Shown: positions 45,328-45,577 of the stretch, one piece after another
Layout: each line of letters opens with the position of its first letter
How positions within the stretch are numbered: position 1 is the stretch's first letter
Translations under genes and position numbers: made by a program
Source of the DNA: a virus
Reading direction: 5' to 3' (one strand)
Length of the DNA: 49,956 bases
IMG/VR virus record: IMGVR_UViG_3300035698_021428
Notes under the pieces: model-generated
The model's input: the letters and a program-made list of their open reading frames with translations, nothing else
Told to the model about the DNA's origin: nothing
Databases searched by the model: none

Positions 45328-45522
45328 ATGAGCAATGAACAAAAAGCAGCTTTACCATGCGTCATTTGCGAAACGAATGAAAACTTACAACCAAAATACG
45401 ACTCTAGCACTGGCGAAAAATGGGTTCATTGCGACGAATGCGGTAAGATTTCAACGCCAACGGTCGATGAACATCCTATAGATGTTTGGAATCGAGAGAA
45501 CAAAGTCTCCGTAGTTCAATAG
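45328..45522 (+). CDS. small zinc-ribbon protein (64 aa)
   Basis: 'CVICE...CDECG'. Its TAG stop lies inside the next tRNA. Confidence 0.5.
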   Translation: MSNEQKAALPCVICETNENLQPKYDSSTGEKWVHCDECGKISTPTVDEHPIDVWNRENKVSVVQ

Positions 45523-45577
45523 GTAGAACGGCAGTCTCTAAAACTGTGCGTTGCAGGTTCAAGCCCTGTCGGAGACG
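45505..45577 (+). tRNA. second suppressor tRNA, anticodon CUA; body resembles tRNA-Trp
   Basis: Acceptor gtctccg/cggagac. D arm gttc-aataggta-gaac (E. coli tRNA-Trp: GUAGUUCAAUUGGUAGAGC). Anticodon arm gcagt-ctCTAaa-actgt (anticodon 45538-45540). T arm gcagg-ttcaagc-cctgt. G73. Confidence 0.8.

Follow-up and report, generated by a model that had tools for sequence, protein, structure and literature searches.

The stretch of viral DNA analysed here, IMG/VR virus record IMGVR_UViG_3300035698_021428 (49,956 nucleotides (nt) in all, referred to below as the window), carries at positions 45505-45577 a transfer RNA (tRNA) gene whose anticodon, CUA, is predicted to read the amber stop codon UAG. It is one of two such genes in a same-strand array of small genes with tRNA genes scattered among them, and the pair stands on either side of a gene for a SPOUT-family RNA methyltransferase. 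After their discriminator bases, the focal gene is called G73-type and its partner A73-type. The features of this part of the window are listed in order, with lengths of proteins in amino acids (aa); ORF denotes an open reading frame.

41550-42167 (+): DUF3228 gene, a member of the conserved block upstream of the A73-type tRNA gene, with a TAG stop and a complete domain (Pfam DUF3228, profile positions 1-194 of 194, E 1.4e-62)
42649-42720 (+): partner tRNA gene, A73-type, anticodon CUA, 270 nt upstream of the methyltransferase gene (ARAGORN; Rfam, 68.6 bits; fold; counterparts in relatives)
42988-43659 (+): SPOUT-family RNA 2'-O-methyltransferase gene (SpoU; TrmH/TrmL-like), between the two CUA tRNA genes (Pfam SpoU_methylase, E 1.7e-15; synteny)
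43646-44377 (+): histidine-phosphatase-family gene, a member of the block (Pfam His_Phos_1, E 7.8e-27)
45328-45522 (+): zinc-ribbon ORF, 64 aa, overlapping the 5' end of the focal tRNA gene by its final 18 nt, with its TAG stop in the tRNA D loop (sequence, ORF analysis, weak Zn_ribbon match)
45505-45577 (+): focal tRNA gene, a G73-type amber suppressor by prediction, class I, 73 nt, anticodon CUA, CCA not encoded (ARAGORN, Rfam, fold, covariation with four related G73-type CUA tRNAs)
45538-45540 (+): anticodon C34-U35-A36 within the loop C32 U33 CUA A37 A38 (ARAGORN, sequence, Rfam; loop bases the same in five aligned G73-type tRNAs)
45578-45579 (+): TT directly after the discriminator of the focal tRNA, a 3' trailer signature common to the tRNA genes of the window (tally of window tRNAs)
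45580-46179 (+): HD_4 gene (RelA/SpoT-type hydrolase), starting 2 nt past the tRNA (Pfam HD_4, E 8.7e-17; NCBIfam spoT_relA)

The focal gene has the hallmarks of a complete tRNA. ARAGORN predicts a 73-nt tRNA at 45505-45577 on the plus strand, with the anticodon cta starting at tRNA position 34, and the Rfam model RF00005 matches over its full length at 63.9 bits (gathering score 29; E 1.1e-11), flagging no non-standard pairs in it. The cloverleaf is the minimum-free-energy fold of the 73 bases (-22.8 kcal/mol; z = -2.4 against shuffles). All 21 stem pairs, as read from the sequence, are standard, two of them G-U wobbles (27-43 and 49-65), and the core bases U8, A14, G18-G19, A21, U33, A37, U54-U55-C56, A58 and G53-C61 are all found. 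With a score above the gathering threshold, agreement with ARAGORN and a cloverleaf fold, the gene falls into the tRNA class of Rfam; with CUA in a seven-base loop (C-U-C-U-A-A-A), U33, and a purine at position 37, it has the form of an amber suppressor. Its discriminator is G73. The preliminary description of this DNA, which had proposed a cloverleaf tRNA with a CUA anticodon here, was exact in coordinates, strand and anticodon. By these features the element is a real phage tRNA gene of a known kind, with an anticodon suited to reading UAG. A search of JGI metagenomes for its D arm together with CUA gave no match, and the exact tRNA sequence was likewise without a match in IMG/VR.

The partner gene is also real, and the earlier view of the two CUA tRNAs as distinct from each other is supported by their sequences, which are 70% identical and differ in the acceptor stem and in the discriminator (A73 vs G73). 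An independent ENA contig of 1,451 bp, 100% identical to window positions 42234-43684, spans this first CUA tRNA gene.

Both genes share a feature with the rest of the tRNA set. ARAGORN finds 12 tRNA genes in the window, two of them with CUA, and a transfer-messenger RNA (tmRNA). In a tally based on these calls, the base 3' of the discriminator is T in 12 of 12 genes and TT follows in 11 of 12, T making up 0.274 of the window's bases, and CCA is encoded by none of the 12. The same trailer follows a tRNA found by Rfam only (7453-7553, TT) and the CUA tRNAs of relatives; in the GenBank huge phage LR756511, T follows the discriminator in 61 of 63 tRNAs. Read in the light of the CCA-less tRNA precursors of Bacillus, a T/TT trailer without encoded CCA looks like a lineage-wide 3'-processing signature, namely an RNase Z-type cut followed by CCA addition. 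The shared trailer places both CUA tRNAs among the phage's working tRNA set.

Conservation of the two CUA tRNA types

No close match to the window was found in the GenBank phage set, and two window proteins looked up by exact sequence had no counterpart on record. Homologs of the SPOUT methyltransferase occur on metagenomic contigs, 80% identical on a contig of 47 kb, 67% on one of 83 kb, and 63% on contigs of 498,610 and 502,461 bp found in many samples. Gene tables and tblastn comparisons revealed a block order common to the window and the loci L025-27, L098 and L028-30/L037: PARP/WGR, glycosyltransferases, M43 peptidase, metallophosphoesterase, DUF3228, SPOUT methyltransferase, histidine phosphatase, HD_4 and two more conserved ORFs. 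Not every member is present in every locus, and L035 has the PARP-to-metallophosphoesterase part. Orthologs of DUF3228 are present in L025 and L098, and those of the histidine phosphatase lie directly 3' of the SpoU gene in L028 and L098 and about 2.2 kb downstream of it in L025. On account of this shared order, the window is a member of a group of roughly 0.5-Mb phages. Relatives of that size are ERZ17089788 NODE_1289088, ERZ25074452 ctg12106 and IMGVR_UViG_3300020429_000529.

Within the block, two CUA tRNAs are found in each of the approximately 0.5-Mb relatives and in the 83-kb contig. The A73 type lies upstream of the methyltransferase gene, with counterparts similarly placed in L025, L028 and L098, and the G73 type lies between the phosphatase and HD genes or just past the HD gene, which in relatives adjoins this tRNA or lies near it. 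Five G73-type CUA tRNAs were aligned, from the window, L098, L028, L035 and LR756511.1. The CUA anticodon, U33, A37, A38 and G73 are invariant in all five, while 11 of the 21 stem pairs show changes on both sides; 94% of the alignment cells are paired, compared with 37-45% in slid-partner controls, and the covariation score of 0.63 (0.23 in shuffles) was reached by none of 500 shuffles. Four A73-type tRNAs display a like pattern by eye, with CUA constant in 4/4.

The persistence of both types in synteny across related huge-phage contigs, the compensatory stem changes and the invariant anticodon together bear out the earlier proposal that UAG decoding here is selected rather than accidental. 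This comparative evidence strongly supports selection for UAG decoding. More widely, a scan of IMG/VR matched 55 loci, many on contigs of 200-500 kb, and these and other fetched loci yielded 63 distinct CUA tRNAs. An IMG/VR contig of 177 kb (L010, region 5506-5827) encodes a SpoU-family homolog, 42% identical, about 50 nt from a CUA tRNA; it otherwise shares just two small matches with the window. This arrangement hints at a wider link of the enzyme family with phage amber suppressors.

TAG as a stop codon in the window and its relatives

A crude gene call under code 11 yielded 65-66 genes and a coding share of about 82% for the window, plus RNA genes. Their stops are TAA in 28 cases, TGA in 25 and TAG in 12, which agrees with the initial count of at least eight genes ending in TAG. 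ORF coverage rises from 0.84 under code 11 to 0.887 with TAG read as sense, to 0.887 with TGA and to 0.895 with TAA; no TAG-specific gain in ORF coverage or continuity was found in the window. The preliminary description had named coding density as the check on recoding, and its outcome speaks against recoding in this DNA. For most TAG-ended window genes, a ribosome reading through would reach the next stop after 0-18 codons; where the extension is longer, it looks non-coding. Back-up stops after TAG are not in excess in the window.

Only one window TAG, that at 45520 inside the focal tRNA gene, is flanked by a strong coding signal on either side. A zinc-ribbon/HD fusion made by read-through of this codon, with 45328-46179 as one open frame, was considered and rejected, because the HD gene has an ATG and a ribosome-binding site of its own from which the whole domain is made, homologs of its product are separate proteins of 170-200 aa, and the tRNA of relatives lies elsewhere. 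The arrangement is read as a coincidence; we put the probability that the two ORFs lie in frame in this way at roughly 0.15. Two further candidates for in-frame TAG, at 41511 and 46376, were also rejected, as the downstream proteins begin with complete domains or their own ATG. Across 175 kb, comprising the window and about 125 kb of related contigs, coding-like flanks occur at 5 TAG, 11 TAA and 3 TGA sites, a pattern as expected from adjacent genes sharing a frame by chance.

A whole genome gives the same picture. LR756511.1 (595,163 bp, GC content 42%) carries 63 tRNAs, a tmRNA and one CUA tRNA. By a crude call it has 954 genes and a coding share of 87%, and 177 genes (18.6%), spread across all segments, end in TAG. 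Seven TAG junctions in it have coding sequence on both sides; six of these are followed by an in-frame ATG within a few codons, usually after a purine-rich stretch, and the seventh (154050) has no start nearby. Back-up stops after TAG in LR756511.1 are no closer than those of TAA and TGA genes (Mann-Whitney p = 0.5).

Other marks of a code change were sought as well. A scan of roughly 50 window proteins, with all ORFs of at least 200 aa among them, revealed no release-factor domain. A structural-looking ORF of 994 aa, with homologs in virion modules, runs uninterrupted and without TAG; its four homologs are distant and all lie in unrelated smaller phages. In the sampled sequence, conserved genes hold no in-frame TAG and TAG is not rare as a stop, in both respects differing from a code-change module. 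In the window, in the sampled related contigs and in the whole genome of a distant relative, there is no sign of TAG recoding: the standard code is used and TAG is an ordinary stop.

Neighbouring genes and other tRNA genes

The HD_4 gene is closely fitted to the focal tRNA, its GGAG ribosome-binding site lying within the 3' acceptor strand of the tRNA. The methyltransferase has weak NCBIfam matches to TrmJ/TrmL, its nearest solved structures are TrmH Gm18 methyltransferases (E 1e-5), and many of its homologs are labelled TrmL in JGI annotation. A second small zinc-ribbon gene follows (46166-46378 (+); L025 15153-15368; L098 about 13502-13714); it has a TAG stop in 3/3 genomes, and in two of the three the next gene is in the same frame, which with n=3 is not significant. 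At 46388-47693 (+) lies a conserved gene pair (also L022, L023, L099), encoding a 146-aa protein of unknown family together with a radical SAM enzyme; about 2,500 metagenome homologs were found, and in L022 and L023 the pair is near tRNA genes.

Two synthetase-like genes lie in the first part of the window, one of them as follows.

649-1803 (+): class II LysRS-like gene of compact size (384 aa, where cellular enzymes have about 500), scoring below the NCBIfam cut-off

This protein is devoid of about 50 residues of an internal insertion and of the N-terminal extension. A role as the dedicated suppressor synthetase was considered for it and rejected, since no counterpart was found in the fetched relative loci or in LR756511; it is therefore not linked to the CUA tRNAs. 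The other is a short gene for a HisRS-like catalytic core (11860-12300 (+), 146 aa as called), about 0.6 kb downstream of an odd tRNA-His, with an apparent frame shift just upstream of it (region 11700-12300). Stand-alone HisRS-like genes of 174 aa, 67% identical, occur in L023 (8889-9413) and L024 (8846-9370), and the gene is therefore a conserved short paralog and not debris.

Several other RNA genes are unusual. The 101-nt tRNA at 7453-7553 (+), recognised by Rfam (46.9 bits) and missed by ARAGORN, has what appears to be about 28 inserted nt in its anticodon region, with an intron-like look, and its acceptor stem GUCUGCG...CGCAGAC is similar to that of the focal tRNA. The genes for tRNA-Arg(CCU) at 2026-2113, tRNA-Thr(UGU) at 6680-6762 and tRNA-His(GUG) at 11160-11242 (all +) are 83-88 nt long with a long extra arm, which is unusual for these isotypes, normally endowed with a short variable loop. 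The tmRNA of the window (26303-26658 (+), 129.6 bits) encodes the tag peptide ANSNPLRIAA in a frame that stops at UGA; the tag of the LR756511 tmRNA is ANPEFAMAA.

Farther afield, the window encodes a major-vault-protein (MVP) homolog, in which MVP shoulder and vault repeats are recognised, as well as a PARP/WGR protein (23791-26127 and 31080-32729 (+)), and L022, a huge-phage contig with the radical SAM gene pair of the window, encodes a TROVE/Ro60 protein at 6275-7900. Together they echo the eukaryotic vault components MVP, vPARP and TEP1. A PAS histidine kinase with a response-regulator receiver, and phosphate-selective-porin-like, PhoD-like phosphatase and type IV pilin-like proteins are encoded too, with coordinates given jointly.

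20070-21881, 22305-22745, 28757-30064, 35848-38157 and 7887-8705: PAS kinase/receiver, porin-like, PhoD-like and pilin-like genes

The kinase, porin, PhoD and pilin genes suggest that the host is Gram-negative and that the phage has auxiliary functions related to phosphate.

Possible functions of the suppressor pair

Phages with a recoded TAG and Sup-CUA tRNAs were reportedly described by Ivanova in 2014. Like the Sup-CUA tRNAs of such phages (crAss-like, Lak and others), the focal tRNA is a phage-encoded canonical cloverleaf with a CUA anticodon, and it is likewise encoded in a standard-code stretch beside tRNAs, an aminoacyl-tRNA synthetase and a tmRNA. Unlike in those phages, the examined sequence shows no in-frame TAG or TAG-specific gain in coding density, TAG stops are undepleted, the GC content of the window (41%) is not especially low, and no release factor 2 gene was seen among the window proteins scanned; moreover, two structurally distinct CUA tRNAs are kept here with a SPOUT methyltransferase. 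With tRNA-Pyl, the focal tRNA has only the anticodon in common, and ARAGORN puts a Pyl label on any CUA anticodon. The focal tRNA has a canonical G18-G19 D loop, a UUC T loop, a 5-nt variable loop and a 5-bp anticodon stem, features that tRNA-Pyl lacks. No pyl genes were found in the window, the sole PylS-related signal being a sub-threshold match to the class II core in the LysRS-like protein (E 7e-4).

Suppressor tRNAs have been described in phages together with code-change modules (Borges et al., 10.1101/2021.08.26.457843) and in jumbo phages (PMC13037316). The available part of the account of megaphage G describes a TAA-decoding suppressor tRNA and reports no alternative code (PMC12484599). 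As far as that account goes, megaphage G resembles the present group as a phage of roughly 0.5 Mb with many tRNAs, a tmRNA, a suppressor tRNA and no reported alternative code; it differs in having one Sup-UUA, which reads TAA, where here two UAG readers are conserved across related phages.

We hold with moderate confidence that the focal gene encodes a functional amber suppressor kept in a megaphage with the standard code, where it would allow partial or conditional UAG read-through and not a wholesale change of code. The tRNA would be transcribed as part of the same-strand polycistronic gene array. RNase P would cut its 5' end and an RNase Z-type enzyme its 3' end after G73, which would account for the conserved T/TT trailer; the CCA-adding enzyme would then complete the 3' end, since CCA is not encoded. 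Processing in this way would break the upstream ORF and separate the HD gene from its ribosome-binding site, and, as the messages of the neighbours would be destroyed, one transcript would give either the tRNA or the HD protein. The neighbouring SPOUT methyltransferase may modify the tRNA at Cm34 or Gm18. Charged, presumably by a host enzyme, the tRNA would compete with release factor 1 at UAG codons, leading to read-through of UAG stops in host mRNAs, phage mRNAs or both, and the phage tmRNA could deal with ribosomes running off the ends of messages. No adaptation to suppression is seen in the genomes, and for this reason the read-through is likely to be partial, timed or directed at host messages. 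The initial suggestion of partial, timed or gene-specific suppression may hold.

More tentatively, the two differently built suppressors (A73 and G73) and a dedicated SPOUT methyltransferase may be kept as a weapon or adaptation by a group of phages whose own genes follow the standard code, with about 19% TAG stops. The A73 and G73 types are probably charged by different synthetases. One option would be a forced read-through of UAG-terminated host genes; another, that TAG-ending phage genes could be finished in hosts with a weak or disabled release factor 1, with the tmRNA clearing stalls.

Several observations weigh against a functional suppressor in a standard-code phage. The window is 50 kb of a genome of probably about 0.5 Mb, and the virion and lysis modules, in which the in-frame TAG codons of recoded phages are concentrated, were not seen in it; the sampled sequence of closer relatives held no such module either. 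The one complete genome in the comparison, LR756511, is only distantly related, with matches to 6 of 53 window proteins. L025, the closest relative seen (SpoU 81% identical), has only the A73-type tRNA in its available 20 kb, so the G73 type is not present here in every relative. A promoter scan returned sites no more frequently than chance. Neither a depletion of TAG stops nor an excess of tandem stops is seen, a lack of adaptation that is puzzling if suppression is efficient.

Some of these points would suit a different account, in which the CUA tRNAs stand in a standard-code 'early' region and serve TAG-containing late genes (virion, lysis) elsewhere in the genome, as in crAss-like, Lak and other gut phages. 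Such a code switch is the established role of phage Sup-CUA tRNAs, and the code-change genes themselves are in standard code (10.1101/2021.08.26.457843); the strong selection for keeping two CUA tRNAs would agree with it, and the window covers about 10% of the genome. Nevertheless, in-frame TAG occurs nowhere in the 175 kb of window and related contigs, nor in the 595-kb, CUA-tRNA-bearing LR756511, the virion-associated-looking 994-aa gene is uninterrupted, and a release-factor domain is absent among the window proteins scanned. The published route to recoding begins with TAG depletion (10.1101/2021.08.26.457843), whereas here TAG is undepleted as a stop (18-20% in the window, 18.6% in LR756511), and we regard this account as unlikely. 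Far less credible is a tRNA that is not primarily a decoder, with an incidental anticodon, and that serves as RNA-processing punctuation, an integration target or a decoy for host defences that target tRNAs. The gene is indeed wedged between ORFs, overlaps the upstream one by 18 nt and carries the downstream ribosome-binding site, and tRNA genes are scattered among small ORFs in both the window and its relatives; yet punctuation or a decoy role would not fix the anticodon in both types, and CUA, U33, A37 and A38 are fixed in five G73-type tRNAs, and CUA in four A73-type ones, while the stems change freely. It is hardly conceivable, finally, that a sense tRNA in a fast-evolving array mutated recently to CUA by accident, as a neutral or slightly harmful change due to be lost. 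Phage tRNA repertoires do turn over quickly, and L025 has no G73-type copy at the corresponding spot, but both CUA types persist across relatives whose proteins are 45-80% identical to those of the window, with many compensatory stem changes and a conserved neighbourhood, and covariation and synteny contradict such an origin.

The origin of the tRNA body was a further point of the preliminary description, which had seen it as tRNA-Trp-like and had noted that the CCA anticodon of tRNA-Trp is one change from CUA. On this reading, a Trp-inserting suppressor would have arisen from tRNA-Trp(CCA) by the single change of C35 to U. One anticodon change would suffice, G73 is common to Trp tRNAs, and the exact focal D arm is present in 4 viral Trp(CCA) tRNAs (one missed by ARAGORN and read by eye) and in 3 bacterial ones; the anticodon stem-loop context GUCU-NNN-AAAC occurs in 5 of the 7 Trp tRNAs sampled. 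This likeness did not hold up on wider comparison. A search of 185,579 bacterial and archaeal reference genomes showed the exact D arm not only in the 3 Trp tRNAs but also in 3 Asn tRNAs and 1 Met tRNA, and the stem-loop context is common also in Phe, Lys and Cys tRNAs. Matches of the focal tRNA by blastn in the phage database are Asn and Trp mixed, and its best E. coli match is tRNA-Asn (75%). An isotype profile classifier, built on 237 reference class I tRNAs with the anticodon masked (leave-one-out 60% top-1, 79% top-3), gave the focal tRNA 16.7 bits for Asn against 1.7 bits for Trp. The D arm is not kept in the other four G73-type CUA tRNAs, which have the D stem GCUC/GAGC and in the classifier are mostly positive for no isotype, otherwise for other isotypes. 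When the four CUA tRNAs of the window and L028 were compared with the 63 tRNAs of LR756511, the best match of all four was LR756511's own CUA tRNA, its Trp(CCA) tRNA being absent from the top eight matches.

The amber suppressor su7 of E. coli, reportedly a laboratory point mutant derived from tRNA-Trp in which CUA redirects charging towards Gln via U35, is said to share CUA, G73 and the loop CU-CUA-AA with the focal tRNA. Unlike su7, the focal tRNA is without the acceptor-stem features reportedly typical of tRNA-Trp (A1-U72, G2-C71, G3-C70), and its relatives are not similar to any sense tRNA. Recognition by TrpRS depends strongly on C35, and su7 is reportedly charged mainly with Gln. Derivation from tRNA-Trp with insertion of Trp is quite improbable on this evidence, and the Trp/Asn likeness of the body, judged by these comparisons, is particular to the single copy in the window.

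Attempts to read the inserted amino acid from D-arm searches, comparison of anticodon stems, identity to 100-160 reference tRNAs and the classifier gave conflicting answers (Asn, Trp or no isotype) that are not conserved in relatives, and the amino acid is not inferable from body resemblance. What is conserved in the G73 type is G73, G10 and C34-U35-A36-A37-A38. By analogy with E. coli, our best guess is that the G73-type tRNA would insert Gln, because G73, G10 and U35 are GlnRS determinants in that species and because TAG-to-Gln is, to our knowledge, the sole UAG reassignment described in phages. The focal acceptor pairs 1-72, 2-71 and 3-70 are unlike the E. coli tRNA-Gln set, which counts against this assignment, resting as it does on E. 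coli rules. The A73-type tRNA might be charged by LysRS or another enzyme.

Phage Sup-CUA tRNAs, code-change modules in standard code and suppressor tRNAs of jumbo phages are already known. Less expected are two distinct suppressors that are paired with a methyltransferase and conserved where no recoding is visible. A natural suppressor pair with different discriminators may also be of interest for genetic-code-expansion work. Phage suppressor tRNAs are currently explained almost wholly as readers of recoded late genes, and here two UAG-reading tRNAs are under clear selection in a lineage whose examined sequence uses TAG as an ordinary stop. If the standard code holds genome-wide, suppressor tRNAs must have a second selective use, for which interference with host termination, conditional C-terminal extension and coping with poor UAG termination by the host are candidates. 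The conserved block of two CUA tRNAs, SPOUT methyltransferase, phosphatase and HD hydrolase would in that case open this question to experiment.

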